64,000 nucleotides of DNA, taken from assembly GCA_963786705.1 (NCBI GenBank), contig CAWBAG010000027.1, positions 1 through 64,000 of the forward strand, in the 5' to 3' direction. The position numbers and the translations under genes are program-made. The DNA comes from an uncultured Gammaproteobacteria bacterium. Lineage in GTDB: Bacteria > Pseudomonadota > Gammaproteobacteria > Steroidobacterales > Steroidobacteraceae. The notes beneath the pieces were generated by a model. It had not been told where the DNA came from and made no database searches. It worked only from the letters and a program-made list of their open reading frames with translations. Positions 18,585 through 47,181 of the stretch are shown here, in pieces. Numbering within the stretch: position 1 is the stretch's first letter; each line of letters opens with the position of its first letter.

Positions 18585-19726
18585 CCCTGAACGCGCTCGT
18601 GGACGTCCCGGGCATCCGCGTCGGTCACCACACCGCGACCGGTGACGGGTACCTCACCGGCACGACCGTGGTGCTCGCCCCCGACCTTGGGATGACGGCG
18701 AGCGTCGACGTGCGCGGCGGTGGGCCGGCCACCCACGAGACGGACCTGCTCGACCCTTCGGCCGCGGTGGAATCCGTTCATGCGCTGGTGCTCACCGGCG
18801 GCAGCGCGTACGGCCTGGCCGCCTGTTCCGGCGTGATGCTCGGATTGGAGGAGCGGGGGACCGGCCTGCCGGTCGGCGCCCAGCCGGGGGAGTTGGTGCC
18901 CATCGTGCCGGGCGCGGCGCTGTTCGACCTGGGTCGCGGGGGTGAATTCCGCGCCCGCCCGACCGCGGATTTCGGCAGGTCGGCGTTGCAGGCGGCGCTG
19001 GACGTGGACTCGGCGAACCTGGAATCAGGATCCGCCTCAATCGGCTCGATCGGCGCCGGGTGCGGCGCAGTGGCCGGAAACCTGAAAAGTGGCCTTGGAC
19101 AGGCGTCAATCGTGCTGGCCAACGGCATGGTGGTGGCGGCGCTGGTGGTGTGCAACGCCGCGGGTTCGCCGATCGACCCTGGCAACGGCGATCTGCTGGG
19201 TGCCCGGCACCTTCTCGCCGTCGACGGCCGGCGTCCATCGGCGGTCGCGGCCGATCGGCTGGCCGCCCTCAACGAGGCCGTGTACCGGCGACCCGACCGG
19301 CCCGTCTTCGCCTTCGACGGCGACAACCGGGGCCCCGAAAACCCCATCCAGCACACCACGCTGGCCGTGGTGGCGACCAGCGCGCCGCTGACCAAGAGCC
19401 GCTGCGCCAGGATGGCCGCGGTCGCGCACGACGGGATGGCCCGGGCCGTCAACCCCGTGCACACCATGTTCGACGGCGATCTGGTGTTCGGCGTCTCGAC
19501 CGGGGGAGCGGGATCAGCCCCTGCCAGGAATGAGCCGGATCCGCTGGAATTCCACGAGATCCTCACCGCAGCAGCTGATGTCGTGACGCGCTCGATCGTC
19601 CGGGGAATGCTGGCCGCCCGCTCCACCAGTACCGCCGCCGGAAGCTGGCCGTCCTGGGGCGAACTCGCCCACGGGATGATTCACCGGGCGCAGCATGCGC
19701 TCCGGCATGCTACCCTCATGCTGTGA
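18582..19726 (+). CDS. S58/DmpA-family (P1) aminopeptidase
   Basis: The ORF is intact from MTLNALVDVPGIRVGHHT and the start overlaps the M20 stop. Confidence 0.7.
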
Positions 19727-19920
19727 GCATGCTGCAGATCAAGAATCTTCCTGACGACGTTCATGCCGAACTGCGTCGGCGCGCAGAACGCGACGGCACC
19801 ACGATGTCGGCGCTGGCGGCACGGATTCTCACCGCGGCGATGTCCCGGCCGTCGATCGACGACTGGCTCGCGCGGTTCGCCGATCGACAAGGACCGACCG
19901 TGAGCGTCCGATCCACTTGA
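19723..19920 (+). CDS. vapB: ribbon-helix-helix antitoxin (VapB/FitA-like)
   Basis: A 65-aa product beginning MSMLQIKNLPDDVHAELRRRAERDGTTMSA. Confidence 0.75.
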   Translation: MSMLQIKNLPDDVHAELRRRAERDGTTMSALAARILTAAMSRPSIDDWLARFADRQGPTVSVRST

Positions 19921-19953
19921 CGCGCTGGACGAGGTCCGATCCGATCTCGGCAC

Positions 19954-20343
19954 ATGATCGTCATCGACGCCTCGGCGCTGCTGGACTTGATTCTCTTGCG
20001 TCCCAACGCTTCCCGTGTTGCGGACGCCATGAGGGGACAGTCCGTCGCCGCTCCCGAGCTGATCGTGGTGGAAACCTCTTCTGCGCTCGCGCGACTGGAG
20101 CGAGCGGGAGACCTTCATACCCACGATGCGGACATCGCGATCCGCGATGTGGGGGAGATGCCGATCTCGTTGGTTGGCCATTCTCCCCTGCACACCCGTG
20201 CGTGGGCGATGCGCGGGTCCCTTCGGGTGGCCGACGCCTTCTACGTCGCCTGCGCGGAACTGCTCTCCGCGCCGCTGCTCACCAGTGACGGGCGGCTGGC
20301 CCGCGCGCCGCTGTCCGGGGTGGCCGTCACGCTCGTCCGGTGA
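19954..20343 (+). CDS. vapC: PIN-domain toxin VapC
   Basis: The product begins MIVIDASALLDLIL and carries the C-terminal ...TSDGRLARAP. Confidence 0.8.
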   Translation: MIVIDASALLDLILLRPNASRVADAMRGQSVAAPELIVVETSSALARLERAGDLHTHDADIAIRDVGEMPISLVGHSPLHTRAWAMRGSLRVADAFYVACAELLSAPLLTSDGRLARAPLSGVAVTLVR

Positions 20344-21631: not shown

Positions 21632-21877
21632 GCCCCTCTCGCGGCGAAAAAAGAAGAGGGCAAGCCCATCGGTCCGCTCGACACTCTAATCGCGGCGCAC
21701 GCGCTTGAGCTCGGGGCCGTGCTCGTCACCAGTAACGCGCGGGAGTTCGCGCGGGTACCGGCTCTGTCGGTCGAGGACTGGGTGGCCAGAGCAGAACGGT
21801 TCTGCAACTTGAGACGTCGCAACACGGCGGCAGGCCGGATACGACTGAAAGTGGCTGGCGCCCGACGAAAGGATTGA
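21632..21877 (+). pseudogene. VapC (PIN) C-terminal fragment without an N-terminus
   Basis: The translation EEGKPIGPLDTLIAAHALELGAVLVTSNAREFARVPALSVEDW has no in-frame start. Confidence 0.6.
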
Positions 21878-22100
21878 GGATACGCAACTGACGATCGATG
21901 AGCTGGCCGTGCTGCAGGTATTCGCAGGACAGCACCTGGCCGCCGGCGATCAGCGCCGCCGCTATCAGCAGCGAGTCGTACAGCGAGAATCCGTAGCGCT
22001 CCACGAGCGCCAGCGCCGCATCCTGGATGCCTCGAAACTGGCCGACGTCTTCGGCATCGACATGGCGGGCCGCGACACGAAGGCGCCGCCAACCCGTGCT
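21850..22100 (-). pseudogene. second VapC (PIN) remnant, convergent with the first
   Basis: The translation is ...HVDAEDVGQFRGIQDAALALVERYGFSLYDSLLIAAALIAGGQVLSCEYLQHGQLIDRQLRILNPF. An upstream stop falls before any plausible N-terminus. Confidence 0.5.
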
Positions 22101-22254
22101 TCTACAGACGCAAGACAGAAGGCACTGATGCCCAGACAGCCGAAAATAGTCTCACCGAAGCGCAAGAGACTTCGGTGACCCGGAAGTCATGCGATCGTGA
22201 CCGTCTCAGGCACGCTGGCGTTGGTCGCTGTCGCGACACTGACGTTGGTCGCTG

Positions 22255-22276
22255 TCGCGACACTGACGTTTCACCT
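22255..22276. promoter_or_regulatory. 22-bp perfect palindrome TGACGTTTCAccTGAAACGTCA (operator-like or bidirectional terminator), 3' of the hemerythrin gene
   Basis: A perfect 10-bp inverted repeat with a 2-bp spacer is visible in the sequence. It lies directly after a 24-bp direct duplication at 22214..22261. Confidence 0.4.
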
Positions 22277-22323: not shown

Positions 22324-22725
22324 CTAGACCTGTGTCTGCAGGAACCGGTGCAGCCGCGCGTCGTAAGTCTTGAAATGGTCACCAAACCACGCGGCCAGGC
22401 GGTCCGAGAAGGCATTGTCGTCGAGCACCCCGTGCTCAATGTGCTCGTCCATGATGTCGCGGATATCGTCGAGCAATCGCTCATGATCCACCTTGTGCGC
22501 GCCGAAATCCGGGTACCGGCGCGCCTGCATGTCCTTCTCTTCCAGCGCGAAATGGGCCGAGATGCGGGCGTAGATCTCGCCGAGGAATTCCTCGATACGA
22601 TCGGAGGTCCGGTCCGCACCCAACGCGGCATGCAGTTCGTTGATGAGGCCGATCAATACCTGGTGCTCATGGTCCACCTCGGCAATGCCGATGCGGAATT
22701 CGTCGCGCCATTCGAGCAGGCTCAC
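22324..22725 (-). CDS. bacteriohemerythrin
   Basis: A 133-aa product with hemerythrin His/Glu/Asp ligand motifs (EVDHEH, HFALEE, HKVDHERL, GDHF). AGGAGG lies 7 nt upstream of the GTG start. The start forms a GTGA overlap with the upstream gene's stop. Confidence 0.85.
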   Translation of the reverse strand: MSLLEWRDEFRIGIAEVDHEHQVLIGLINELHAALGADRTSDRIEEFLGEIYARISAHFALEEKDMQARRYPDFGAHKVDHERLLDDIRDIMDEHIEHGVLDDNAFSDRLAAWFGDHFKTYDARLHRFLQTQV

Positions 22726-23231
22726 GGTGGCACCTCCTGGGTGGCCAGCCCGTGTGCCGGCGCGCGCCCGAACTGGAAGCCTCCTTCCGTGCCGCGAAAG
22801 TCGATGACGAAGTTCTGGCCGGGCACGAGCAGGACGGTCGCGACACTCGCATAGTCGAATCCCGTCGCACGGCCGCTGTCGCGCAGCCGCACCTCGAATC
22901 GATGCCGGCCGGCCGGCACGCGGAAGCTCGCGTAGACGGTGGACGGACCATCGTCCCACAGGCCTGCTGGCTGGTGGGTGGCGCGGTGTATCTGCCGCCC
23001 GTCGAGGTCGAGTTCCACATAGACCGGCCAACGGCCGCGTTCGCACGTCGTCGCGCGCCGCTGGTTGAACGGCAGCTTCGCGAGTTCCTGGGGACTGTAG
23101 TGCCGGCACGGCTTGAGCGGCTGCGAGGCATGACTGAAGCTGAGCTTGAGCAGGGCCTGGTCGTGGTGGAGGTACGCGTAGGTCGGCCGCGTGGCAAACC
23201 AGCCGATCAGCAGGGCCAGGGCTCCCAGCAT
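22722..23231 (-). CDS. hypothetical N-terminally anchored (probably periplasmic) protein, about 169 aa
   Basis: The TM anchor is MLGALALLIGWFATRP. It is translationally coupled to the hemerythrin gene. No family was recognised. Confidence 0.5.
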   Translation of the reverse strand: MLGALALLIGWFATRPTYAYLHHDQALLKLSFSHASQPLKPCRHYSPQELAKLPFNQRRATTCERGRWPVYVELDLDGRQIHRATHQPAGLWDDGPSTVYASFRVPAGRHRFEVRLRDSGRATGFDYASVATVLLVPGQNFVIDFRGTEGGFQFGRAPAHGLATQEVPP

Positions 23232-23272
23232 TGCCGCGGCACCGACGACCCGCAGGGGCGCTGCCAGCTGGC

Positions 23273-24838
23273 TCAGTCGTGGCGCGCCAGGCGAGACCCG
23301 TCCGGCCCGGCAGTGGGGAGCGCGACAACGGCCCGCAGGTGCTGTCGGAATTGCGCGAGCGTCTGTCGTGTTCGATGCTGTTGCACCGGTGACGCCCAGG
23401 AGACGGCCACCCGGTCGCGATCCACGCGATCGCGCAGGTGCGGATCCCTCTGGTTGGCAATGCGCTCGTCCACCCACCGGTTGCCGAGCCGCTCGAAGCA
23501 GTCTTCCTCGGCACAACCGGCGATCAGCACGCCGTCGGCGTGCTTGCGCGAGATCACCAGGTCGATGAACGACGGCGGCAGCATCGCGACGCAGGGCATC
23601 GGCACGACGGCGACCCCCGGATCCGCCAGCGCATCGAGATTGCCGGCGTGGGCGCATCGGAAGACGACGACGCGGTCGTTGCCCTGCAGCTTGCCTGTAG
23701 CGGCGATCACCTGGTCGCGCAAGCCTGCGATGGGAGCGGCAGGCAGTTCGATGCCAGGCACCAGTGCGCTCGCGCGGCGGAACGGCGTGGCCGTCGGGCA
23801 CGCGCCGACGCAGATCCCGCAGCTCATGCAGAGGCCAGGATCGACGCGGGCTTCCTGGTCGAACTCGGCGCCGTCCGTCCGCCCGACCATCGTGATCGCG
23901 CCGAACGGGCAGTCCGCGAAACAGCGGCCGCAGCCATTGCAGTTGTCGAGGTGGACCACGGCGGGCGGCGCCTGGCGCAGCGGTGGCAGCCACGGCAGCA
24001 AGGTGAGGAACACGCTGCCGCCGACCAGCGCCGCCCAGAGCGTGCGGCCGCTCACGACGTCGAGCAGGGGATACACGGTCAGATAGAACCAGTCGACGCC
24101 GACGTCGAACGGGGCCCGGTCAAGGTCCGCCGGCGCCTGGCTCATGGCCGGCACGACGAGCGAAAGCGCAACCAGCATCCCGAACACGGCGAGCCCGAGC
24201 CGGCGCGGCGGGTTCACGCGCGCATGCGCGTGGCGCTGGATGTGCACCCACATGAACAGCAGCATGATCAACGGCACGGCGATGTGGATGTAGGCCATCA
24301 GCGTGAAGAACCGCCCGCTCAGGTGCGAGCTGTCGAGGAAGTTCCGCGCGATCGGCTCCGCAAAGATGCCGATGCTGTCGAGCCACTCCGTGGTGGCGAT
24401 GGCGACGTATTGCGCGAGCTGGTCCCAGACGAGCCAGTAGCCGGTGATGCCGCAGGCATAGAGGAACCACAACAACGGCACGCCGGTGACCCACGGGAAC
24501 CAGCGGTTGCCGCGCATGCGATCCATGGCGAATTCGCGCAGCATGTGCAGGATGACGACCACGACCATCGCGTCCGAGGCGTAGCGATGCAGGCTGCGCA
24601 TGATGCCGCCGAGGTACCACTGCTCGCGCGACAGGTACTCGAGCGATGCGTAGGCCTGGGTCACGCCCGTGTCGAAGAACACGTAGACGTAGATGCCGGT
24701 GACGGTGACGATCCAGAACAGGAACCAGCCGAGCGACCCGAGTTGCACGAGGGGATTCAGCACCGGGCCGAAGAACTTCTCGCAGGCCTGCTCGAGTCTC
24801 AGGAAGAGGGCGCGCAGTGACGCCTTGAGCAGCTTCAC
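23273..24838 (-). CDS. fusion protein: di-heme cytochrome b (bc-type N-terminal domain), 2x[4Fe-4S] ferredoxin and MvhD/FlpD-like iron-sulfur domain
   Basis: The 521-aa ORF is intact. It has His-x13-His pairs in TM helices (HRYASDAMVVVVILH and HIAVPLIMLLFMWVH). The cysteine motifs are CNGCGRCFADCP and CMSCGICVGACP. The C-terminus carries FRCAHAGN...PCVAM...IAGCAEEDC. Confidence 0.75.
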   Translation of the reverse strand: MKLLKASLRALFLRLEQACEKFFGPVLNPLVQLGSLGWFLFWIVTVTGIYVYVFFDTGVTQAYASLEYLSREQWYLGGIMRSLHRYASDAMVVVVILHMLREFAMDRMRGNRWFPWVTGVPLLWFLYACGITGYWLVWDQLAQYVAIATTEWLDSIGIFAEPIARNFLDSSHLSGRFFTLMAYIHIAVPLIMLLFMWVHIQRHAHARVNPPRRLGLAVFGMLVALSLVVPAMSQAPADLDRAPFDVGVDWFYLTVYPLLDVVSGRTLWAALVGGSVFLTLLPWLPPLRQAPPAVVHLDNCNGCGRCFADCPFGAITMVGRTDGAEFDQEARVDPGLCMSCGICVGACPTATPFRRASALVPGIELPAAPIAGLRDQVIAATGKLQGNDRVVVFRCAHAGNLDALADPGVAVVPMPCVAMLPPSFIDLVISRKHADGVLIAGCAEEDCFERLGNRWVDERIANQRDPHLRDRVDRDRVAVSWASPVQQHRTRQTLAQFRQHLRAVVALPTAGPDGSRLARHD

Positions 24839-24878
24839 GCCGGTCGCCCCCGTCCGCCGGCCGCAACCGCTGCATGAC

Positions 24879-25720
24879 TCAACGCGAGTTCCGCCAGGAT
24901 ACTGCGATGACGACAGCCACCATGCCGAGGGCGAGAATTCCCGCGATCGCGTCGGCCACGATCGAATAGTCGAAACGATAGCGACCGCTGGCGGGATCGT
25001 AGATCGTGCAGAACAGTTTCACCGACCGGGCGAGCCCGGCGAGCGTGCCGCGCTCGATCTCCTGGCCGCGGACGAGGCGCTTCAGCGGCTCGACGAGACT
25101 TGGCGGGTTGAAGTCCTGCCCGTACACCTGCAGTGTCACGCGCCCGGTGCCGTCGATGACGGTGGTCTGCGTGATGTGGTCGAATCCCTTGGGCGACGGC
25201 CGGTAGGTGAAGCCGACGTCGCGCGCCAGTCGCTCCAGCGTCGCGGTGTCCGTGCTGGCGAAATACCAACCCGGCAATGCCGGCGCCACGCTCCTGCGCA
25301 TACAGCCGCATCCGTGCCGGCGTGTCGTTGGGCGTGTCGAATCCGACCGTCAGGACGGTGAAGCTGTCCGGTCCGAGCGCTCGCCGCGCCACCTTGGCGA
25401 CGTCGCGCAGGTGCACGGTCAGGCCGGAACAGACCTGGTAGCAACTCGTGTAGACGAGGCTCAGCACGACCGGCTTGCCGCGGAGGCTCGACAGCCGGAA
25501 CGCCCGGCCGCGTTGATCGACAAACTGGTAGTCATCGAGTTGCCGGTTGATCGCGGCCTGGCTGGTCGCCAGCGCGGTGGTCGTCGTCAGGAGCCGGCGT
25601 CTGCGCAAGGGCACCTGCGGCCATCGCCCAGGCGCAACCCGAGCAGGAGTCCGCCGTGCAGCGTTGACCTGCGATGGGGCCTGCGCATGGCTCAGTAGAC
25701 GACCAGGCGGCCTGACAGGG
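24879..25720 (-). CDS. sco: SCO1/SenC copper chaperone (copy 1), frameshift near 25260; the start is uncertain
   Basis: The CxxxC region is VVLSLVYTSCYQVCS and there is a C-terminal TM. The two halves lie in ORF 24835..26073 and ORF 24879..25301. An extra T is apparent in GGGTTGGTAT. Confidence 0.7.
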
Positions 25721-25753
25721 CTCCGTCGACGATGGCCCCGACCAGCAGCAGGC

Positions 25754-26640
25754 TCAACTGCAGCAGCGAGGCCAGGAAGTTGCGGATTGCGTTCTGCCGT
25801 GTCGGTGCGCGGACGAGGAGGACGCTTCGGTAGACGAAATACGCGCCGCCGGCTGCGGCACAGGCGAGATAGGAGTTCCCTGCGCCCCAGGCCGACCGGC
25901 AACAGCGCGAGCAACACGAGCAGCACGGTGTGCCCGAGGATCACGCGAGCCGCGACGCGATCGCCGATACACCACCGGCAGCATCGGCACGCCGGCGTCG
26001 GCGTAGTCCTGCCGGTAATACATCGCGAGGCTCCAGAAGTGCGGCGGGGTCCAGAGAAACAGGATGACCGCAAACGTCCATGCGGCCGGGCCCAGGCCTG
26101 GATTCACCGCCGCAGCACCGGCCAGCACGGCGAAACTGCCGGCGAGGCCGCCGACGACGATGTTCAGCCACGTCCGCCGCTTGAGCCAGAGCGTGTAGAC
26201 GACGCCGTAGGTGAACGCGCCGAGGAACACGAAGGCGGCTGCCAGCCAGTTCGTCGCCAGGCCGGCCGAGACGACCGCAACGGCCAGCAGCAAGCCGATC
26301 ACCGCGAACCATGGCGCAGCCGCCGTCGAGCTGCCCGGTGACGAACGGACGGCCGCGAGTGCGCGACATGCGCGCGTCGAGGTCGCGTTCGGCCAGGTGA
26401 TTGAGCGCACCGGCGCTCGCAGCGGCCAGGAAGACCGCGATCGCAAGAACCAGCAACTGCGCACGGCGGCAACCCGGGGCCCTGGGCCATCGCGACGCCC
26501 GCGATGCCGGCGAACATGATCTCGAGGGCGATGCGCGGCTTGAAGACCTCGACCGTGCTCCGCCAGGAAGCCCGATTCGCTGCGAGGTCCGCATCCTGCG
26601 CGACTGCTTGGTGCACGTTCGCTCCTACCGCAGCGGCCAG
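25754..26640 (-). CDS. ctaB: protoheme IX farnesyltransferase (heme O synthase) CtaB/CyoE, at least 3 frame changes
   Basis: The N-terminus is RSTVEVFKPRIALEIMFAGIAGVAMA. The middle is ALNHLAERDLDARMSRTRGRPFVTGQL. The C-terminus is FVFLGAFTYGVVYTLWLKRRT...LWTPPHFWSLAMYYRQDYADAGVPMLPVV. All three parts are in different frames. Confidence 0.7.
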
Positions 26641-28328
26641 ACCTCGGCAAGGTACTTCCAGTTCACGAAGTAGTACAGGACGAACGACACGAAGAACACG
26701 CCGACCAGCACGATCGTGCCGGGGATCTTGAGCGTTCCCTCGTTGCCGTAGCGCGCCACGGCCGCGGCCGATGCCGCGCCGGACACCGGACCGAGCTGCA
26801 CCACTTCGCTGTCGCCGATCCTGCGGCCGAAGAAGACCGAGCAGACGACGACGAGAATGTACATCGCGCCGCCGATCGCGGCCATGATCGCGGACATGCC
26901 GTTGAGCGCCAGCATCAGGAACGCCGCGGGCGAGAACTGGAACTGGCGTGAGCGCGTCCGCGAACGTGATGTCCCAGTGCCTGCGGGGCACGCCGAGCGT
27001 GCCGGCGCCCATCATGAACAGCGAGATGCCGGCAACGCCCAGCCCGAAAATGTAGGGCTGCAGCTGGGCGACCTTCCTGAACATGACCTCGCGACGGAAG
27101 ATCAGCGGTACGAGGAGATACGTGATCGCCATGAACGCGAGCGTCGTGCCGGCGACCACGGTCGCGTGGAAATGCCCCGGCACGTACAGCGTGTTGTGCA
27201 TGATCAGGTTGATCTGCTCGGTGCCCATCACGACGCCGGAGATGCCGCCGAGGAAGCCGAACATGACCAGCGACAGGAACATGCCGGCAAATGCCGGGTT
27301 GCCCCAGGGCGCCTTGCGCAGCCACTCGAACAGGCCCTTGTTGTAGCCCTTGGCGCGCTGCGCCGCCTCGATGGCGCCCGGCACCGTCATGCCGTGGATC
27401 ATGCTGCCGAGCACGGCGAGGTACATCGCGTAGCTGGTGTTGAAGATCTTCCAGCTCGAGCTCACGCCGGGCTCGACCAGCATGTGGTGCGCGCTCGCGA
27501 GCTGCAGGAACAGGATGTACATGAGGAACGCCATGCGGCTGACTTTCTCGGAGATCGGCTTGGCGCCGAGCACCATGGCGCCGATCGCGTACCACACGGC
27601 GACGTGCGCGGAGACGTTGATCTGCTGCGAGGAGTGGCCCATGCCCCACCAGACCAGCTTGTACATCAGCGGGTCGATGCCGCTGATGATGCCGAGCGAC
27701 CAGAGGAAGGTCGGGATGAGGATGATCGCGCCGCAGGCCAGCGTGAACACGGCGATGATCGCCGCCGTGATGGCGCCGAAGGTGACCAGCGGCACCGATC
27801 CCTCGTAGGTCTTCTCGTCCTTGGCAACGACCAGCGTGCCGAAGAAGACCGCGCAGCCGATCAGGGCACCCACGGCGAACAGGACGAGGCCGAGGTAGAA
27901 GTGCGGCGCCGCCAGCAACGGCGCGTAGGAGGTGAACATGACCGAGGAGTTGCCCTGGAGCACCGCGACGTTGGTCATCAGCGCGCCGACCAGCATCAGC
28001 CAGAACTGGACCCATCCCCAGCGTGGCGCGGCAAGCCGTGAATTGAGCAGTACCGCGGAGGCGAAATACAGCACCGCCATCTCGAAGAAGATGATCCAGA
28101 CGAGCAGCACGTCGATGCCGTGTGCGGTCAGCGCGCAGGTAGAACCAGTCGGCCGGCAGCAGGTGCACGGCAGGCCAGCGTGTCAGCGCGACCGACAGGC
28201 CGAACAGGCCACCGACGAGCAGGAACACGACGGCGGCGACGGCGTTCGACCTTGATGAGGTTTTCCGCCGAACGGTCGATCCGCAGGCCGGTCGTCGGGC
28301 AGGTGCGAAAGATGGTTGCAACTGTCAT
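26625..28328 (-). CDS. cbaA: heme-copper oxidase subunit I, B-family (ba3-like) CbaA, several frame changes
   Basis: Most of the protein is in ORF 26299..28110 (GHFHATVVAG, HHMLVEP). The C-terminal TM helices are in ORF 26625..26915. The N-terminus is in other frames. Confidence 0.7.
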
Positions 28329-28338
28329 GACGGCCCGC

Positions 28339-28875
28339 TCAGTTCTTGTCGACGACGTAGATGCGACCGGTCATCGTGTGATGCCCGAAGCCGCAGTACT
28401 CGTTGCAGACGACGCCGAACTGGCCGGATTGATTCGGCGTCATCGTCACGACCATCTCGTATCCGGGGTGTACCTGGATGTTGATGTTGACGGGCTGGAG
28501 GGAGAAGCCGTGCTGCAGATCGATGGACGAGAGGTGCAGCCGGTAGGTCTCGCCCTTGACGAACTCGAGCATCGGCCACCACATGTAGACGCGACCCATC
28601 ATGTAGACGTCGCTGCCGGGCGGGGGTCGCACGACCGGGAATGCACCTTCCTGGCGCACCGTGTACGTCTCGACCATCTTGTCGACCTTGGCCGCGAAGT
28701 CGGCTGGCGTCGTCCTGTAGGCCTCGTTCGAGAGATTCTGGCTTCCGGCGCCATGCCAGTAGATCATCATGAAGAACATCACGATTCCCCACAGGAACGC
28801 GATGCTGGCCCAGATCAATTCGACCTTGTGAACGGGCTCTTTCCACCAGTTTGCGCCCGGAGATGCGATTGACAT
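28339..28875 (-). CDS. cbaB: ba3-type cytochrome c oxidase subunit II (CuA)
   Basis: A 178-aa product with a single TM and the CuA motif CNEYCGFGHHTM. Confidence 0.85.
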   Translation of the reverse strand: MSIASPGANWWKEPVHKVELIWASIAFLWGIVMFFMMIYWHGAGSQNLSNEAYRTTPADFAAKVDKMVETYTVRQEGAFPVVRPPPGSDVYMMGRVYMWWPMLEFVKGETYRLHLSSIDLQHGFSLQPVNINIQVHPGYEMVVTMTPNQSGQFGVVCNEYCGFGHHTMTGRIYVVDKN

Positions 28876-28890
28876 GGCTGCTGTCTCCGG

Positions 28891-29061
28891 TCACGGCGTG
28901 GCGATGGGAATCTGGATGATTTCCATGATTCCCCAGATGAGATAGACGACCGTCGGGATCGTGACGCCGAGGAACAGCAGCAGGAAATGGTTGTCGAGCA
29001 GACGCTGGAAGAACGGCGTGCGTTCGGGACGATCGGGCTCGGTGGGTTGCGGTCCGGACAT
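28891..29061 (-). CDS. 56-aa single-TM protein directly upstream of cbaB (subunit IIa/CbaD-like), absent from the ORF track
   Basis: The product is MSGPQPTEPDRPERTPFFQRLLDNHFLLLFLGVTIPTVVYLIWGIMEIIQIPIATP. It stops 15 nt before the cbaB ATG. Confidence 0.5.
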   Translation of the reverse strand: MSGPQPTEPDRPERTPFFQRLLDNHFLLLFLGVTIPTVVYLIWGIMEIIQIPIATP

Positions 29062-29511: not shown

Positions 29512-30504
29512 TCATCGGGTCGGCCGCAGAAATCGCAGCAGCGCGACCGTGGCCAGCACGAGCAACGCCGCCACGCCGTTGTGCGCGACTGCCAGCGGCA
29601 ACGGGAAGGTCCTCAGCACCATCACCGGCCCGAGCAGGAGCTGGGCTGCGAGCACGGTCGCGAGGACAACCCCGGTCGTGCGGACACCGCCTGACCGCCC
29701 GAGACGAATCGCCTTCCAGGCCGTGACGGCCAGCACGAGCGCCGTGACGATCGCACCGAGCCGGTGCGTGAAATGGATTGCCACGCGCGCCGGGTGGTCG
29801 AGCACGCCGCCCTCGTAATCGATGCCGAGACCGCGCCAGAGCACGAAGGCATCGCGGAAATCCATCTGCGGCCAGTACGACGCCTGGCAAGTCGGGAAGT
29901 CGGGACAGGCGAAGGCCGCGTAATTGGAACTGACCCAGCCGCCGAGCATGATCTGCACCGCGAGCACGACCAGGCCGAACACGGCCCACGTGCGCAGGCT
30001 GCGCTCGACGGCAGGCGGGGTCGTCCGCGCAGGCTCGAGGTACAGCCACCACAGCAGCGCCATCGTGGTGAGTCCGCCCACGAGGTGCGCCGAGACGATC
30101 AGCGGCTTCAGCAGCAGCGTTACCGTCCACATGCCGAGCAATCCCTGGAACACGACGAGCAGCACCAGCGCTGCGGGCAGCCCCACCGGTTGCCGCCGGT
30201 CGCGACGGTTGCGCCACGCGATCACCGCGAGCGCGACAATCACGAGGCCGAGCGTCGACGCGAGATAGCGATGCACCATTTCCTTGAGCGCCTTGTCCGC
30301 CTCGAGCGGCCGCTCGGGATACGCGGCGTTCGCGACCGCGGAGTTCTCGACCGCGTCGCCGACCGTCAGGTGGCCGTAGCAGCCCGGCCAGTCCGGGCAG
30401 CCGAGGCCCGCGTGGCTCAGGCGCACGTACGCGCCGAGCACGATCACGCAGAAGGCGAGGACCGTGCCCAGCAGGCAGAGCCGGCGAAATGTCGAGTTGT
30501 GCAT
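29512..30504 (-). CDS. ctaA: heme A synthase CtaA/COX15
   Basis: The ORF is intact from MHNSTFRRLCLLGTVLAFCVIVLGAYVRL and carries the conserved Cys pair CPDWPGC. Confidence 0.85.
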   Translation of the reverse strand: MHNSTFRRLCLLGTVLAFCVIVLGAYVRLSHAGLGCPDWPGCYGHLTVGDAVENSAVANAAYPERPLEADKALKEMVHRYLASTLGLVIVALAVIAWRNRRDRRQPVGLPAALVLLVVFQGLLGMWTVTLLLKPLIVSAHLVGGLTTMALLWWLYLEPARTTPPAVERSLRTWAVFGLVVLAVQIMLGGWVSSNYAAFACPDFPTCQASYWPQMDFRDAFVLWRGLGIDYEGGVLDHPARVAIHFTHRLGAIVTALVLAVTAWKAIRLGRSGGVRTTGVVLATVLAAQLLLGPVMVLRTFPLPLAVAHNGVAALLVLATVALLRFLRPTR

Positions 30505-30518
30505 GACGTAGACCTGGG

Positions 30519-31133
30519 CTAGCCGATGTGCGAGAGTCGCAGCAATTTCCGGACGTCCGCAAGCAGCGCCATGTCCGGCGCCGCCGCGGAGTAGCTCAGC
30601 ACGAGATTGCCGAGCGGATCGACGAGGTAGAGGCGTCCCGCGACGGCATCCGCGGTGCCCGGGAAAGCCGCAAGGAGCGCGCGTCCACCGGCTTCGTCGC
30701 GCGGCAGCACGACCGTGAGATCCGGATGTTCGGCCGACAGGTACGCGCGATCGCAGCAACCACCGGTCGCCAGGAACACGCGCTGCACGCGGTCCATGTC
30801 CTTGTTGAGCGCGATGCGCGACTGCCGCGAGAGGTAGAGCAGCTTGCGACAGCGTTCGTCACAGGCGCCGTCGCCGACGAAGAGCATGGTCCACTTGCCT
30901 CGCAGGAGGTCGACTGGCATGGCCACGCCGTCCATGTCCGCTAGCGATGTGACCGGCAGCGGCACGGCGGGATCGATCAGGTCGCCCTGGTTCGTGCCGC
31001 CGACCGGCCGCCAGTCGGTCGGGCCGTAGTAGAGCCAGAACGCCACGGCCAGCGGCACGAAGAACATCGCCGCGAGCAGCAGCAACTGGCGCTGACCGCG
31101 GCGCGGGGACTCGGTGGGGCTGGGCGCGTTCAT
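30519..31133 (-). CDS. membrane-anchored thioredoxin/SCO-like hypothetical protein (cox-cluster associated)
   Basis: A 204-aa product with an N-terminal TM and Cys motif FVGDGACDERC. It sits between surf1 and ctaA. Confidence 0.6.
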   Translation of the reverse strand: MNAPSPTESPRRGQRQLLLLAAMFFVPLAVAFWLYYGPTDWRPVGGTNQGDLIDPAVPLPVTSLADMDGVAMPVDLLRGKWTMLFVGDGACDERCRKLLYLSRQSRIALNKDMDRVQRVFLATGGCCDRAYLSAEHPDLTVVLPRDEAGGRALLAAFPGTADAVAGRLYLVDPLGNLVLSYSAAAPDMALLADVRKLLRLSHIG

Positions 31134-31900
31134 GGGGGTGAATTGGACGCTTTCATGGCGGCGCCGTCAGGTCGTTGCTGGAAACTGAGCGCGATGAAGA
31201 TCACCAGCAGCACGACGCGAGCGCGAACCACTGGATCGCGTAGCCCGAGGTGCCGCTCGGGGCCGACACTGAGCGCTGGCCGCCACTCGCGTTCGAATCC
31301 GTCCGGTTCGGCCGCGTCGAGCAGCAGGATGCGCGGTTCGACGGGCGCGCCGAGTGCGTGCTCGAGATCGCCGCGCACCGGAAAATTGAGTACGCGAGGC
31401 CAGCGCGTGTCGCCCGGCACGCCGGCTTCGCCGACGCGCACGCCCGGTACCGGCAACTGGTCGAGGCGGCCGACGACGACGCGCGCCGTCGCCGGGACGG
31501 CTACGCTCGGCAGGTCGGCGCGGCTTGCCCCGAGCGGAACCCAGCCCCGATCGACCAGCAGCAAGTGCCCGGTTCCTTCGCGGACCAACGGCGTCAGCAC
31601 GCGGTAACCCGGGCGGCCCGTGCGCGACGAGGGCATGTTGTCGAGCAGCACCTGGCGTGCGGAATCGTAGCGGCCGGCGACCGTCACGTGCTGGTAGCGC
31701 GGCATGGCGTCGACCGTTCCATTGTCGAGCACGGCGGTTGTCACCGCGCCGCGCGTGAATGCGTCGATCATGGCCTGCTTGTCGTGACGGCGGTCCAGTT
31801 GCCACCAGCCGAGCGCGACGAATGCGGCGCACAGCAGCGTCGTGACCAGCACGGCCCAGGCGCGCGGAGCGAACACGCGATCGGCCAGTCGCGGCGTCAT
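31130..31900 (-). CDS. surf1: SURF1 cytochrome oxidase assembly protein with a local compensated frame disturbance near the C-terminus
   Basis: The product begins MTPRLADRVFAPRAWAVLVTTLLCAAFVALGWWQLDRRHDKQ. The expected HLGYAIQWFALA segment is replaced by HLGLRDPVVRARV. The start ATGA overlaps the stop of the next gene. Confidence 0.75.
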   Translation of the reverse strand: MTPRLADRVFAPRAWAVLVTTLLCAAFVALGWWQLDRRHDKQAMIDAFTRGAVTTAVLDNGTVDAMPRYQHVTVAGRYDSARQVLLDNMPSSRTGRPGYRVLTPLVREGTGHLLLVDRGWVPLGASRADLPSVAVPATARVVVGRLDQLPVPGVRVGEAGVPGDTRWPRVLNFPVRGDLEHALGAPVEPRILLLDAAEPDGFEREWRPALSVGPERHLGLRDPVVRARVVLLVIFIALSFQQRPDGAAMKASNSPP

Positions 31901-31936
31901 CTATACTCTGCTTCCAACGCGTCCGGCCTCCCGCAC

Positions 31937-32146
31937 ATGCTCGTCAAGCTGCTCATCGTCGCCGTGCTGGTTGCGATCGTCGTGAGCCTCGGCTCCGGAC
32001 TTCGCCACCTCGTCAAGGACGACGGCCAGTCCAGGAAACGCATGGTCGACGCGTTGACCGTTCGCATCGCCCTGTCCGTGCTGCTGTTCGTGCTGCTGTT
32101 CGTCGCGTGGCGCACGGGGCTCATCACGCCGCACCACGTGCGCTGA
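31937..32146 (+). CDS. twin-transmembrane-helix small protein (DUF2909-like), encoded on the strand opposite the surrounding cox genes
   Basis: The 69-aa product is MLVKLLIVAVLVAIVVSLGSGLRHLVKDDGQSRKRMVDALTVRIALSVLLFVLLFVAWRTGLITP. It shows strong GC3 bias. Both minus-strand frames give only low-complexity translations. Confidence 0.6.
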   Translation: MLVKLLIVAVLVAIVVSLGSGLRHLVKDDGQSRKRMVDALTVRIALSVLLFVLLFVAWRTGLITPHHVR

Positions 32147-32204
32147 CCAGGCGCAACGGCCGCCCGTGGGCGGCCGCCGTGTCCGCCCGTCGCCGGGACT
32201 GCGG

Positions 32205-33086
32205 TCAGAGCCAGTACACGAAGATGAACAGGCCGAGCCAGACCACGTCGACGAAGTGCCAGTACCAGGCGACTCCCTCGAACGCGAAATGATGCTCGGG
32301 CGTGAAGTGGCCCTTCATGACGCGCATCCAGACCACGAGCAGCATGATCGCGCCGATCGTGACGTGCAGGCCGTGGAAGCCCGTCAGCATGAAGAATGTC
32401 GAGCCATAGACGCCGCTGCCGAGCGTGAGGTTCAGCTCGTGGTAGGCGTGCGCGTACTCCTCTGCCTGCAGGCCGACGAACAGGAAGCCGAGGAGGAACG
32501 TCAGGGCCAGGAAGACCTTCAGCACGCCGCGGCTGCCGGCCTGCAGCGCGTGGTGCGCGATCGTGATCGTGACGCCGGACGTGAGCAGGATCGCGGTGTT
32601 GATGGCAGGCAGCCCGAACGCGGGGATGATCTCGAACGAGCCGCCGACGTCAGCGGGCCCGTTCGTCGGCCATGCGGGCTGGAACTCCTTCCAGAGGAAC
32701 AGGTTGGTGAGGAACTTGCTGCCCTCGCCGCCCAGCCACGGCACCGAGAGCTGCCGTGCGTAGTACAGCGCGCCGAAGAACGCGCCGAAGAACATCACTT
32801 CGGACAAGATGAACCACAGCATCCCCATGCGGAACGACTTGTCGACGTCCTGGTTGTACAGGCCGCCCTGGCTCTCGCCGATGACCGTGCCGAACCAGCC
32901 ATAGAACATGTAGAACACGGCAAGCAGGCCGGCGAAGAACAGCCACGGCGCCAGGTTCACGCCGTTCAGCAATGCCGCGGCGCCGAGCATCGTGACGAAG
33001 AGCGAGACCGAACCGATGATCGGCCACTTGCTGCCGTGCGGGATGTAGTACTTCCCCGCGTCGTGCGCGGTATGAGCCTGGGCCAT
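32205..33086 (-). CDS. coxC: cytochrome c oxidase subunit III
   Basis: The ORF is intact from MAQAHTAHDAGKYYIPHGS and carries the typical CoxC core. Confidence 0.85.
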   Translation of the reverse strand: MAQAHTAHDAGKYYIPHGSKWPIIGSVSLFVTMLGAAALLNGVNLAPWLFFAGLLAVFYMFYGWFGTVIGESQGGLYNQDVDKSFRMGMLWFILSEVMFFGAFFGALYYARQLSVPWLGGEGSKFLTNLFLWKEFQPAWPTNGPADVGGSFEIIPAFGLPAINTAILLTSGVTITIAHHALQAGSRGVLKVFLALTFLLGFLFVGLQAEEYAHAYHELNLTLGSGVYGSTFFMLTGFHGLHVTIGAIMLLVVWMRVMKGHFTPEHHFAFEGVAWYWHFVDVVWLGLFIFVYWL

Positions 33087-33132
33087 GGGCGTCTGCCTCT
33101 GTCTTCTGTCTGGCGTGTGTGTCGAACCAAGC

Positions 33133-33666
33133 CTAGCGTGCTGCGAGTCTTCCGGGCTGCGGCAACGCATAGATCGAGTAGGCGAGCGTCATCCGATCGA
33201 CCTGCCGCGGCAGGTCAGGATCGACGATGAAGCGCACCGTGAATTCGCGTTCCTCGGAGGCCGCGAACGACTGCGGCGTGAAGCAGAAGCACTCGGTCTT
33301 CTGCAGGTACCTCGCAGTGACCGCGGGCGCCACGCTCGGCACGGCCTGCGCGACCACCGGCACGGTCGCCTTGTTGCGGATGCGGAACCTCGCCTCGTAG
33401 AGCTTGCCGGGCTGCAGCACGAGACTGCGCGTCATGGGCGTCAGCTCGAATTCCGCGGCGGGCGGCAATATCGAGACGAACTCGAGCGTGACCTCGCGGC
33501 TCGAGCCGGCGTCCGACGTGCCGAGCTGCGACGGCGCCGTGTTGACGCGTAACCCGGCCGCCTCGCAGATGACCTTGTAGAGCGGCACCAGCGCGAAGCC
33601 GAACGCGAAGCTGCCCGCCACCATGAGCACGAGGCCGCGGGTCAGGGAGTGGTCAGGCCTGCGCAC
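33133..33666 (-). CDS. ctaG: cytochrome c oxidase assembly protein CtaG/Cox11
   Basis: A 177-aa product with one TM and the CFCF copper motif. Confidence 0.85.
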
Positions 33667-33695
33667 CGGGCACGGTCATGTGATGTCGCCCGCGC

Positions 33696-33824
33696 TCACG
33701 GCGACGAGCTCACGACGCTCGACGCGATGAACGCGACGTAGATGCCGAACGCCACCAGCATCAGCAGGATCGTGTTGCGGCGGATGCGCCGGCGCTGCTC
33801 GTCCTGTCGGTCGCCAGTTGTCAT
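33696..33824 (-). CDS. 42-aa cytochrome oxidase small assembly protein-like ORF between coxA and ctaG, absent from the ORF track
   Basis: The product is MTTGDRQDEQRRRIRRNTILLMLVAFGIYVAFIASSVVSSSP. Confidence 0.45.
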   Translation of the reverse strand: MTTGDRQDEQRRRIRRNTILLMLVAFGIYVAFIASSVVSSSP

Positions 33825-33846
33825 CTGCCGATGCCTCGCGCCGTCC

Positions 33847-35475
33847 CTACTTGACCTGCGGCGCTTCGTCGAACGTGTGGTACGGCGCGGGCGACGGCAC
33901 GGTCCATTCGAGGCCGTGCATGCTGCCGTCCCAGACCGCCGCCGTCGCCCTGGCGCCGCCGCGCGCGCACTTCCAGATGACGTACACGAACAGCAGCTGC
34001 GAGAGGCCGAAGCCGAATCCGCCGATCGACGACACCATGTTCCAGTCGGCGAACTGCGTCGAATAATCCGGGATGCGCCGCGGCATGCCCGCCAGTCCCA
34101 GGAAGTGCTGCGGGAAGAACAGCACGTTGACGAACACGGCGGACAGCCAGAAATGAATCGTGGCGAGCTTCATGTCGTACATGTGGCCGGTCCACTTCGG
34201 CATCCAGTAGTAGACGCCCGCCATGATCGCGAAGACCGCGCCCGGTACGAGCACGTAGTGGAAATGCGCGACGATGAAGTACGTGTCGTGATACTGGAAG
34301 TCCACCGGCGCGATGGCCATCATCAGGCCCGAGAAGCCGCCGATCGTGAACAGGAACAGGAACGCGAGCGCGAACAGCATGGGCGGCTCGAACGTCAGCG
34401 AGCCCTTCCACATCGTCGCGGTCCAGTTGAACACCTTCACGCCCGTGGGCACGGCGATCAGCATCGTGCTCAGCATGAAGAACATCTCGCCCGCGAGCGG
34501 CATGCCCACCGTGAACATGTGGTGCGCCCAGACGATGAACGACAGGAACGCGATCGACGCCGTCGCGTAAACCATCGCGTCGTAGCCGAACAGGCGCTTG
34601 CGCGAGAACGTCGGGATGATCTCCGAGACGATCCCGAACGCGGGCAGGATCATGATGTAGACCTCGGGGTGCCCGAAGAACCAGAAGACGTGCTGGTAGA
34701 GCACCGGGTCGCCGCCGCCCGAGGCCGCGAAGAACGTCGTGTGGAAGAAGTGATCGGTGAGCAGCATCGTCACGGCGCCTGCGAACACCGGCATGACGGC
34801 GATCAGCAGGTACGCGGTGATCAGCCACGTCCACACGAACAGCGGCATCTTCAGCAGCGACATGCCCGGCGCGCGCAGGTTCATGATCGTGACGATGATG
34901 TTGATCGAACCCATGATCGACGAGGCGCCCGCGAGGTGGATCGCGAAGATCGCGAGCGGGAAAGCATCTCCGGTCTGCAGCACCAGCGGTGGATAGAGCG
35001 TCCAGCCCGAAGCGGGACCGCCGCCCGGCATGAACAGCGACAGGATCAGCAGCGTGAACGCCGACACCAGCAGCCAGAAGCTGAAGTTGTTCATGCGCGG
35101 CAGCGCCATGTCGGGCGCGCCGATCTGGAGCGGGACCATCCAGTTCGCGAGGCCCACCGTCGCCGGCATGACCGCACCGAACACCATGACCAGCGCGTGC
35201 ACCGTCGTCATCGTGTTGAAGAAGCCGGGATCCACGAGCTGCATGCCGGGCATGAAGAGCTCGGCGCGCACGACGAGCGCCATCGCGCCGCCGAGCAGGA
35301 ACATGACGAGACTGAAGATCAGGTACATCGTGCCGATGTCCTTGTGATTCGTCGTCGTCAGCCAGCGCATGATGCCCTTCGCGGGGCCGTGGTCGTCGTG
35401 GTGGCCCTGTTCGGTGACCTCCACGTCGTGGTAGGTGCGGCTCAGGACGTCCGGATGGGCGTGGGTCTCGGTCAT
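33847..35475 (-). CDS. coxA: cytochrome c oxidase subunit I (aa3-type)
   Basis: An intact 542-aa ORF with the canonical A-family motifs (GHPEVYIMILPAFG, HHMFTVG). Confidence 0.9.
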   Translation of the reverse strand: MTETHAHPDVLSRTYHDVEVTEQGHHDDHGPAKGIMRWLTTTNHKDIGTMYLIFSLVMFLLGGAMALVVRAELFMPGMQLVDPGFFNTMTTVHALVMVFGAVMPATVGLANWMVPLQIGAPDMALPRMNNFSFWLLVSAFTLLILSLFMPGGGPASGWTLYPPLVLQTGDAFPLAIFAIHLAGASSIMGSINIIVTIMNLRAPGMSLLKMPLFVWTWLITAYLLIAVMPVFAGAVTMLLTDHFFHTTFFAASGGGDPVLYQHVFWFFGHPEVYIMILPAFGIVSEIIPTFSRKRLFGYDAMVYATASIAFLSFIVWAHHMFTVGMPLAGEMFFMLSTMLIAVPTGVKVFNWTATMWKGSLTFEPPMLFALAFLFLFTIGGFSGLMMAIAPVDFQYHDTYFIVAHFHYVLVPGAVFAIMAGVYYWMPKWTGHMYDMKLATIHFWLSAVFVNVLFFPQHFLGLAGMPRRIPDYSTQFADWNMVSSIGGFGFGLSQLLFVYVIWKCARGGARATAAVWDGSMHGLEWTVPSPAPYHTFDEAPQVK

Positions 35476-35481
35476 GGTCGG

Positions 35482-36399: not shown

Positions 36400-36473
36400 T
36401 GGCACCACCGAAACTCCCTTGACGTTGACCGGCCGGGTTCCGGGCACCCGGACAGACCCGCGCGACGGCACGA

Positions 36474-37004
36474 TCAATACGATCGATGCTCGAGCGCAGG
36501 GGATTCGCTCGTCCTTCCCACCAATTGCCGGAGCCGCCCCGCAAGACTGCGGCGCTCGTCCTCCATGAGAAACCGGCCCACCTCGCAGGCGATTCCGTGC
36601 GACTCGATCACGAGCCGGCTCGGGTGCAGCACCACTCGCGGATCGCGGAGTTTAACCGTCGCCCAATGGCGTGGAAATACCAACCGACTCGATTCGCCGG
36701 GCCCGCGTCGCTCGACCACGACCGAGGCGTCCGAGACCAGGATGACCTCGCGGCATTCTCCGGAGCGCAGACTGGCCTGCACGGCCCACCAGAGCAACCA
36801 GATCTCGAGCCCGGCGATTGGCAGCACCGGCCACAGGCCCTGGACCGCGAAGAAGACGGCAATGCCGAACGTGAGCACGGCCAATCCACCCACGAACGCC
36901 CGGGCCGACCGCGGGGTCAATGCACAGTTGGGCACCAGTTCGATCCGATGCTCGACGGGCGTGGCGGGCGAACGGTTGTGCGTGGCGATGACCATGGTTC
37001 GCAC
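36474..37004 (-). CDS. DUF2244 integral membrane protein (cox-associated)
   Basis: The 176-aa ORF is intact. Confidence 0.55.
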   Translation of the reverse strand: MRTMVIATHNRSPATPVEHRIELVPNCALTPRSARAFVGGLAVLTFGIAVFFAVQGLWPVLPIAGLEIWLLWWAVQASLRSGECREVILVSDASVVVERRGPGESSRLVFPRHWATVKLRDPRVVLHPSRLVIESHGIACEVGRFLMEDERRSLAGRLRQLVGRTSESPALEHRSY

Positions 37005-47171: not shown

Positions 47172-47181
47172 TCATGCGGCG

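Follow-up and report, generated by a model that had tools for sequence, protein, structure and literature searches.

A conserved gammaproteobacterial operon for a probable eNOR-type nitric oxide reductase with a cytochrome b/FeS/MvhD fusion and a bacteriohemerythrin

A cluster of densely packed genes has been analyzed in a 64,000-nt stretch of an uncultured gammaproteobacterium of the family Steroidobacteraceae (contig CAWBAG010000027.1); this whole stretch is called the window below, and all open reading frames (ORFs) of the cluster lie on its minus strand at 22324–29061 (Table 1). It is likely that the locus constitutes one conserved operon for a nitric oxide (NO) reductase of the eNOR type, probably switched on by a regulator of the FNR/DNR type in response to low O2, NO, or both. 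NO reduction under microoxic conditions is suggested because the catalytic Tyr of O2 reductases is replaced by Gln, the catalytic subunit falls into a Tyr-less clade, nirS and napA are recurrent neighbors, and the operon is preceded by an FNR/DNR-type box. For the same reasons the O2-scavenging or O2-delivery module, proposed in the first-pass annotation of the window, is no longer favored.

The eNOR family itself is known (Hemp and Gennis, 2008), and the enzyme from Rhodothermus marinus has been characterized (Murali et al., 2024; PMC11214002). What appears to be new is the fixed partnership with a protein combining cytochrome b, 2[4Fe-4S], MvhD-like and β-sandwich domains, and with a bacteriohemerythrin: literature searches on eNOR with hemerythrin, on eNOR in Woeseiaceae and Steroidobacteraceae, and on hemerythrin with ba3, cytochrome b and ferredoxin returned no description of such a cluster. 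The earlier remark that this is not a described system thus seems to hold for the association with the fusion and the hemerythrin, and does not hold for the enzyme family (PMC11214002; PMC8756737). eNOR-type enzymes are thought to drive a large share of environmental NO reduction and nitrous oxide (N2O) formation, and hundreds of species (Steroidobacteraceae, Woeseiaceae, and other Gammaproteobacteria from soil, sediment and wastewater) appear to inherit the enzyme together with the fusion and the hemerythrin.

The catalytic subunit and its relatives

The Pfam COX1 profile matches subunit I at 2e-61, and the closest solved structures are those of the Thermus thermophilus ba3 oxidase (E = 1e-46). 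All six canonical His are kept, in TAHG, GH231, AH280H281, and GH386FH388, compared to H72, H233, H282/283, and H384/386 of ba3, and are invariant across the loci. Of these His, two are axial haem ligands, one binds the high-spin haem, and three serve the CuB/FeB site. On the contrary, the cross-linked Tyr of ba3, Y237, aligns with Gln235 of subunit I. The motif GH[S/A]SQQ, which has the form HSSQQ in the window, is invariant in 66 loci out of 66, with no Tyr at position H+4, and HxxQQ is also found in proteins P0121, P0128, and P0138 and in Defluviimonas. The Tyr supplies the fourth electron for O2 reduction, and its absence is the published criterion for NO reductases (NORs) in the superfamily (PMC11214002); the diagnostic active-site residue is Y in O2 reductases, Q in eNOR, and N in sNOR and CuANOR (PMC8756737, Table A4). 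Judged by these residues, the enzyme is related to the B family and, because the catalytic Tyr is absent, is not a ba3-type O2 reductase. The assignment to ba3-type oxidases made in the first-pass annotation fails on the HPxVY motif, carried by all canonical B-family representatives found in the same search. Hence the annotation “probable NO reductase,” and not “ba3/cbb3-type oxidase,” would be appropriate, which changes the metabolic predictions for these taxa.

Most of the K-channel-type path of ba3 is retained: S309, T315, Y248, and T312 of ba3 align with Ser308, Thr314, Tyr246, and His311 of subunit I, respectively, and the position of Y244, aligned with Val242, is not kept. According to PMC11214002, eNOR and bNOR retain an S309 equivalent, which sNOR has lost; sNORs have Asn at the active site, with the Ser309 equivalent replaced by Glu elsewhere (PMC8756737; PMC11214002). 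An assignment to sNOR (norSY-senC-orf1), suggested by the common Sco gene and the loss of Tyr, has been ruled out, as the active-site residue is Gln and not Asn, and the Ser309 equivalent is present.

Three layers are observed around subunit I of the window in a search of 1.8 billion cluster representatives. The first one comprises other HxxQQ proteins (43–61% identity), one of them from the haloarchaeon Natrarchaeobius; the second, an HxxQY group from Hodarchaeales and Thermoproteota (39–46%); and the third, canonical HPxVY enzymes of the B family (27–36%). In a neighbor-joining tree, constructed without any bona fide eNOR sequence (R. marinus, Magnetospirillum, Accumulibacter), the HxxQQ proteins including the haloarchaeal one form a single clade whose sister is the HxxQY group, apart from the canonical HPxVY enzymes of the B family. 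This clade structure agrees with published work, in which eNOR is derived from a lineage of O2 reductases. A link of the P0121 clade to the Accumulibacter eNOR was also considered and none was gained, the named relatives of this clade being “Deltaproteobacteria” metagenome-assembled genomes (MAGs).

Comparison with described systems agrees with this placement. The cluster shares with eNOR the Gln in place of the cross-linked Tyr, a subunit II of the CuA type, residues like those of the K channel (the Ser309 equivalent among them), biogenesis genes related to haem A in or next to the operon, and an association with genes of microoxic denitrification; the R. marinus enzyme was compared by description and residues, not by sequence. 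It differs from eNOR in its partners, as published descriptions mention CtaA in the operons, and not a cytochrome b/FeS/MvhD fusion, a β-sandwich anchored by a transmembrane (TM) helix, or a hemerythrin; none of these accompanies the haloarchaeal member of the Q-type clade. The sNOR cluster norSY-senC-orf1 of ammonia oxidizers (PMC6967387; PMC4964001) is likewise Tyr-less and B-family-derived, has a CuA subunit and a co-transcribed Sco/SenC plus a further ORF of unknown function, is induced under O2 limitation, and is the subject of the same O2-versus-NO debate, but has Asn and lacks the Ser309 equivalent, whereas Gln and Ser are present here. The T. thermophilus ba3 oxidase (cbaDBA; PDB 1EHK/1XME) is the best template and has the same order of small TM subunit, subunit II and subunit I, as well as CuA and the six His; unlike the cluster with its HSSQQ, however, it has HPIVY with Tyr237 and no accessory redox genes.

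Conservation, genomic neighborhood and regulation

The fusion was used as the alignment query in a scan of one genome per GTDB species; it is encoded in 366 species-level genomes (GTDB species representatives), and the best 80 of these 366 species' loci were inspected. All 80 come from MAGs, mostly of Gammaproteobacteria (Steroidobacteraceae, Woeseiaceae, Chromatiaceae, and others). In every locus that is long enough, the same-strand order of the genes for the 56-residue protein, subunit II, subunit I, (CtaB), Sco, the fusion, and the hemerythrin is kept (tblastn). This order is retained down to 44% identity of the fusion and is also observed in metagenome contigs and on a complete Defluviimonas plasmid. 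The sco gene is present in every locus, ctaB in about half of them, and the 56-residue protein is kept upstream of subunit II in all long loci (56–100% identity), while the hemerythrin adjoins the fusion downstream in all 80 genome loci. Co-conservation of the downstream genes with the cba genes had been set beforehand as the test of a single module, and both the 80 loci and the metagenome loci are strongly in favor of it. Flanking genes vary between the loci, and synteny with the relatives stops after the hemerythrin.

The genes are densely packed in the window, as the first-pass annotation had pointed out: the successive intergenic gaps measure 15, 10, 8, 3, and 40 nt, and the last two genes overlap by 4 nt. 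Its description of the last junction is also confirmed: the GTG start of the hemerythrin gene overlaps the preceding stop codon as GTGA and has its own AGGAGG 8 nt upstream. No convincing internal terminator or promoter is seen in the operon, terminator matches inside the coding sequence being weak; a sigma-70 promoter scan and an Rfam scan of the window found nothing. The hairpin at 22152–22178 is the likely end of the transcription unit, although its T-tail is weak. Between the hemerythrin stop codon and this 10-bp hairpin, there are 2.3 tandem copies of a 24-nt unit, CTGACGTTGGTCGCTGTCGCGACA (22215–22270); the repeat region is absent from the alignment with the closest intact locus, L002.

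The box TTGATCTATATCAA is the only FNR-type match in the window, even if one mismatch is allowed, and is situated between the gene for a 65-residue protein with two predicted TM helices and that for the 56-residue protein. A box with at most one mismatch is found 65–121 nt upstream of the 56-residue gene in about half of 64 related loci. By tblastn, ~55 related loci have the 65-residue ORF, which has no Pfam match, on the same strand immediately before the cluster; in three distant loci it is found at the opposite side. The extent 22324–29061 given previously includes the genes listed above, while this conserved ORF and the FNR-type box lie outside it.

Denitrification genes recur in the neighborhood. 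In a distant clade (61% identity; named relatives are “Deltaproteobacteria” MAGs) the cluster consists of subunit II, subunit I, Sco, a 715-residue fusion, and UbiA, and abuts nirS, a gene for a multihaem cytochrome c, and napDA. Moreover, nirS is found within 10 kb in three gammaproteobacterial loci (L072, L079, and L081). One locus of the distant clade also contains an additional, highly divergent COX1-like membrane protein of 497 residues with a weak Pfam COX1 match, encoded between nirS and the small subunit gene (L087, 5844–7337).

A complete copy of the cluster is carried, along with the cbb3 genes ccoNOQP, by a plasmid (NZ_CP156080.1) of the cultured Defluviimonas sp. SAOS-178_SWC, which makes the question experimentally tractable. 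Beside ccoNOQP this plasmid record (L090, 66933–76465) encodes an Rrf2-family regulator, a group III truncated haemoglobin, a hemerythrin-domain protein, and an NnrS family protein. By its gene content this island, ~50 kb from the eNOR-type cluster, looks like an NO-stress island.

The view of the cluster as a high-affinity B-type O2 reductase, with the hemerythrin capturing or delivering O2 and the cytochrome b/FeS protein supporting an O2-scavenging module for microoxic life, seems unlikely. It agrees with the ba3 oxidase being the closest solved structure, with the CuA subunit, the three CuB-type His, and the K-channel-like path, and with a hemerythrin scoring above the cut-off of the bacteriohemerythrin model and possessing all O2-binding ligands; the FNR-type box is compatible with induction at low O2, and such a role has been argued for the related sNOR (PMC6967387). 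Still, an invariant Gln stands in place of the cross-linked Tyr that all characterized haem-copper O2 reductases require, and the existence of a Tyr-bearing sister clade marks the loss of Tyr as a derived and fixed trait. The characterized eNOR does not reduce O2, reducing NO instead (PMC11214002), and the adjacency of nirS and nap is recurrent. The hemerythrin is predicted to be cytoplasmic, whereas haem-copper enzymes draw O2 from the membrane phase, and the distant clade without hemerythrin keeps everything else.

A number of observations weigh against the assignment of the operon to NO reduction, or against parts of it. Membership in the eNOR family rests on the diagnostic residue, the channel residue, and the clade structure; B-family-related enzymes can be bifunctional; and the Nitrosomonas sNOR has been argued to be a high-affinity O2 reductase from its induction under O2 limitation (PMC6967387). 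The FNR box fits a response to O2 limitation as well as one to NO, and in most loci the surrounding 10 kb are free of nir, nor, and nos genes. The distant clade has the fusion and no hemerythrin, and the haloarchaeal Q-type enzyme has neither; because of this distribution the fusion seems to go with a bacterial subtype of this enzyme and the hemerythrin with its gammaproteobacterial/alphaproteobacterial branch. As for the electron supply, the cluster has no gene for a Rieske protein or a cytochrome c, confidence in the Fer4 part of the fusion model is low, and the C-terminal domain of the fusion has generic fold matches only.

The cytochrome b/FeS/MvhD fusion and the hemerythrin

Nearly all close homologs of the 521-residue ORF (23273–24838) are about 704 residues long, and their C-termini match the 169-residue ORF of the window (22722–23231), which had been annotated as a separate anchored protein. 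The inserted bases at 23314 and 23280 shift the frame twice within 34 nt and split the fusion in the record. Compared with all close relatives, the two ORFs are one 704-residue gene in this lineage; the anchored module itself is real. A natural split form, with a protein of ~505–526 residues and a separate one of ~172 residues encoded with a 4-nt overlap, is found in a Woeseiaceae-type clade and on the complete Defluviimonas plasmid.

The cytochrome b–2[4Fe-4S]–MvhD-like architecture read from the translation is borne out by Pfam, with Cytochrome_B at residues 23–200 of the 521-residue ORF (69.9 bits, cut-off 27.2), two Fer4 motifs at 294–350, and FlpD/MvhD at 398–503 (PF02662; 45.3 bits, cut-off 22.3). 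The complete order is a di-haem cytochrome b of the bc type, two more TM helices, a 2x[4Fe-4S] ferredoxin, an MvhD/FlpD-like domain, a TM helix, and a C-terminal β-sandwich. Alignment A1 shows no variation in the bis-His haem pairs H86/H100 and H187/H201 (P0002 numbering), which make up the two haem sites of helices B and D; eight Fer4 Cys and four FlpD Cys (C397, C418, C444, and C449) of the fusion are invariant as well. At the stretch matching PEWY of the bc complex we observe a conserved (V/F)DWFY, in which D251 and W252 do not vary. In none of the inspected loci does the cluster contain a gene for a Rieske protein or cytochrome c1.

The AlphaFold2 (AF2) model of the fusion has a mean pLDDT of 63 and seven TM helices, the Fer4 region being poor. 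In fold searches, the membrane part matches cytochrome b of bc1 (TM-score 0.55 over ~295 columns), and the FlpD domain matches MvhD (5odc_D and 8rvu_F, TM-score 0.69–0.72); the arrangement of Fer4 and MvhD resembles the C-terminus of HdrA2. By analogy with the standard topology of cytochrome b, the Fe-S domains would be cytoplasmic, and the C-terminal domain, periplasmic. The model of the latter, with a pLDDT of 90, shows a TM helix and a β-sandwich; two Cys and two His are conserved in this domain. The fold search with it gave only generic β-sandwich matches with Z at most 9.7 (the luminal domain of HGSNAT, TssJ, transthyretin-like proteins) and no functional lead. The two Cys and two His might form a Rieske-like cluster, although their spacing differs from CxH...CxxH.

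The hemerythrin scores 92.6 bits with NCBIfam NF033749 (cut-off 84) and 87.1 bits with TIGR02481 (cut-off 51.75), and also matches Pfam Hemerythrin. It has the full set of di-iron ligands (H, HxxxE, HxxxH, HxxxxD) in DHEH, AHFALEE, HKVDH, and DHFKTYD, and is predicted to be cytoplasmic, having no signal peptide.

Each part of this combination has precedents. In NarI-NarH, HdrE-HdrD, and DsrM-DsrK, a membrane di-haem cytochrome b is coupled to cytoplasmic Fe-S subunits, and Rieske/cytochrome b complexes with extra FeS/flavoprotein subunits have been proposed for anammox bacteria. Their architectural logic is also that of the fusion, with a di-haem b anchor that faces quinol and is connected to Fe-S clusters in the cytoplasm; here, however, the haem b is of the bc1/b6 and not the NarI type, and forms one chain with the FeS and MvhD-like domains, and the protein has neither a CCG/HdrD catalytic domain nor a Rieske partner and ends in a periplasmic β-sandwich. 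MvhD/FlpD, which transfers electrons as the [2Fe-2S] subunit of Mvh-Hdr (PDB 5ODC chain D), is matched by score above the cut-off, by fold, and by the four invariant Cys, but the present domain occurs in aerobic or microoxic Proteobacteria, is fused to a respiratory cytochrome b, and has no hydrogenase or heterodisulfide reductase nearby. In Ralstonia eutropha, NorA, a di-iron hemerythrin-like NO-binding protein, is co-transcribed with the NO reductase NorB (qNOR). Again a cytoplasmic di-iron protein shares an operon with a membrane NO reductase; NorA, however, is of the YtfE/RIC type with qNOR as the partner, and the hemerythrin studied here is of the O2-carrier type.

In the proposed scheme, the operon would make an NO reductase for microoxic conditions. 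Its core enzyme, as the sequence shows, consists of the 56-residue TM subunit, the CuA subunit II, and the catalytic subunit I, with CtaB supplying haem O(A), and Sco, copper for CuA. The fusion would then act as a dedicated quinol-linked redox partner oxidizing quinol at the periplasmic side. One electron route may lead from its periplasmic domain to the CuA side of eNOR, and a second one, from haem b via the FeS clusters to the cytoplasmic face, keeping reduced the hemerythrin, an O2/NO-binding di-iron protein. Such a role of the fusion as the electron module of the operon, with these two routes, is suggested tentatively, as a realistic possibility that falls somewhat short of being probable. 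The fixed partners point to a dedicated electron-input or protection module, missing from current models of denitrification.

A bolder version, which we regard as rather doubtful, is that the fusion is a Rieske-less quinol-oxidizing partner making this eNOR subtype a self-contained quinol:NO oxidoreductase, in which haem b is drained not to a Qi site but to the cytoplasmic Fe-S clusters that reduce the hemerythrin as an O2/NO buffer. If true, this would mean that a bc-type cytochrome b can be wired in a new way, and that denitrification has a new branch conserving energy in Gammaproteobacteria abundant in soil and sediment.

Alternatively, the fusion and the hemerythrin might be assembly or maturation factors, providing, e.g., a CtaA-independent route from haem O to haem A(s), or insertion or repair of the non-haem metal and the Fe-S centers under NO stress. 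In the haem A variant, the hemerythrin would be a di-iron activator of O2, the ferredoxin-type part would supply electrons, and the membrane part would be a haem-binding scaffold. Eukaryotic haem A synthase needs a ferredoxin, and RIC/NorA-type hemerythrin-like di-iron proteins act in NO damage control. The position of both genes next to the biogenesis genes ctaB and sco at the 3′ end of the operon is in line with this idea, as is the modified haem A of eNOR: many eNOR operons contain ctaA (PMC11214002), while here it is found within 10 kb in 4 of ~85 loci. Yet the fold of cytochrome b is unrelated to that of CtaA/Cox15, and in this genome a normal ctaA lies directly upstream (29512–30759). 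The Qo-like motif and the bis-His haem pairs are hallmarks of quinol-linked electron transfer and not of a chaperone, and the hemerythrin matches O2-carrier-type bacteriohemerythrins, not the RIC models. A maturation role is considered quite improbable.

Frame breaks in the deposited record and other features of the window

The five clean minus-strand ORFs of 56, 178, 521, 169, and 133 residues reported by the first-pass annotation are present as described. The genes for subunit I (cbaA), ctaB, and sco are not intact, each running through two or three reading frames in the three-frame translation, and the phase plot of G+C content at third codon positions (GC3) tracks the frame switches in the COX1, UbiA, and Sco genes. 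These breaks, and those in the fusion, had been overlooked. Pfam matches to COX1, UbiA, and SCO1 are nevertheless obtained on the pieces between subunit II and the fusion, SCO1-SenC being matched by an in-frame piece of sco, and the corrected CtaB scores 265.6 bits with NCBIfam TIGR01473 (cut-off 210.3). Subunit II has NCBIfam CoxB and NosZ C-terminal matches and is just under the cut-off with Pfam COX2 (E = 2.7e-4); its CuA motif CNEYCGFGHHTM and the upstream His were read from the translation. The 56-residue protein has no match in Pfam or NCBIfam.

Table 1. Features of the eNOR-type operon and its immediate surroundings in the window (order as read along the minus strand).
Feature	Position	Strand	Remarks
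65-residue protein, two predicted TM helices	29240..29437	-	ORF; upstream of the operon promoter region; no family assignment
FNR/CRP-family box TTGATCTATATCAA	29156..29169	.	Perfect palindrome; center 101 nt upstream of the first start codon
56-residue single-TM protein	28891..29061	-	Intact ORF; placed like ba3 subunit IIa; resembles cbaD in position and topology only
Subunit II, 178 residues	28339..28875	-	One TM helix and a cupredoxin domain with complete CuA motif (H...CNEYCGFGHHTM)
Catalytic subunit I, 566 residues (corrected)	26625..28328	-	Broken by inserted bases 28249, 28136, 26946
Haem O synthase CtaB/CyoE, 306 residues (corrected)	25692..26616	-	Broken by inserted bases 26461, 26319, 25967, 25893
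Sco/SenC copper chaperone, 268 residues (corrected)	24879..25688	-	CxxxC motif SCYQVC, C-terminal TM anchor; broken by inserted bases 25635, 25581, 25283
Cytochrome b/FeS/MvhD fusion, single gene of 704 residues	22722..24838	-	Split in the record by inserted bases 23314, 23280
Bacteriohemerythrin, 133 residues	22324..22725	-	GTG start; no signal peptide
Terminator-like hairpin, 10-bp stem	22152..22178	-	~150 nt past the hemerythrin stop; consensus scan

For the comparison of frames we used L002, the closest intact orthologous locus, which lies on a metagenome contig assembled from short reads and has a nucleotide identity of 86%. Its back-to-back genes encode proteins of 56, 179, 566 (COX1), 306 (UbiA), 268 (Sco), 706 (fusion), and 133 (hemerythrin) residues. 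Relative to it, the coding sequence of the window has 12 one-base insertions (three in subunit I, four in ctaB, three in sco, and two in the fusion) and no deletions. With these 12 bases removed, full-length colinear ORFs are obtained, having no stop codons, deletions, or larger lesions and 94% (subunit I), 90% (ctaB), 87% (sco), and 91% (fusion) identity to L002. The dN/dS ratio against L002 is 0.09–0.19 across all seven genes, the broken genes showing no elevation over those that are intact. All 12 checked errors are insertions outside homopolymers. In a nine-way alignment, unique one-base insertions are confined to long-read “contig_” assemblies, namely the window (11), L001 (5), and L007 (4), at differing sites and as insertions only, while short-read or hybrid-polished relatives have none. 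As the exact 521-residue product is present in NCBI/ENA, the frame errors belong to the deposited assembly.

Judging from the restored ORFs, the low dN/dS, the insertion-only pattern of long-read assemblies, and the frame breaks in other genes of the window, the 12 frame breaks are artefacts of long-read assembly, not biology. The opposite possibility, that the cluster is a decaying array of pseudogenes with real frameshifts and a non-functional operon, could draw on the sheer number of frame-breaking insertions, 12 in ~5 kb, and on the truncated 521-residue product in public databases, which places the breaks in the deposited record. It is extremely improbable, and pseudogenization has been rejected, since no lesions remain after the removal of 12 bases, broken and intact genes have equal dN/dS, the +1-only pattern recurs at other sites in two other long-read assemblies and in none of the short-read or hybrid relatives, and unrelated genes of the window are broken, too. 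The case calls for caution with long-read MAGs, in which insertion-only frameshifts can make a healthy operon resemble short ORFs or pseudogenes.

Indeed, one-base insertion errors seem to be present throughout the record. Many short same-strand ORFs overlapping in different frames are observed across the window (e.g., at 43000–48500 and 60213–62278), among them a helicase fragment (45234–45983) and three overlapping ORFs ahead of the PilY1/PilW genes. Stretches of more than 2 kb can be free of breaks, as exemplified by an intact gene for a 719-residue (p)ppGpp synthetase/hydrolase of the RelA/SpoT family (54500–56659, minus strand).

Two more haem-copper oxidase clusters are encoded on the minus strand of the window. 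Directly upstream of the eNOR-type operon, at 29512–36651, there is a complete cluster of an aa3-type (A-family) oxidase, comprising COX2, COX1, CtaG/Cox11, COX3, SURF1, a 204-residue protein of unknown function, and CtaA/Cox15. This stretch has no ctaB of its own, and the only nearby ctaB is that inside the eNOR-type operon. In the other cluster, at 48792–53301, subunit II is fused to a cytochrome c (caa3-like) and is followed by COX1 and COX3; the COX1 ORF (49484–50893) lacks the first 116 profile positions, probably due to another frame break. Finally, at 19723–20343 on the plus strand, a FitA-like ribbon-helix-helix antitoxin (65 residues) and a PIN-domain toxin (129 residues) form a toxin-antitoxin pair of the VapBC type, and a possible PIN-like fragment is found on the minus strand at 21726–22004.

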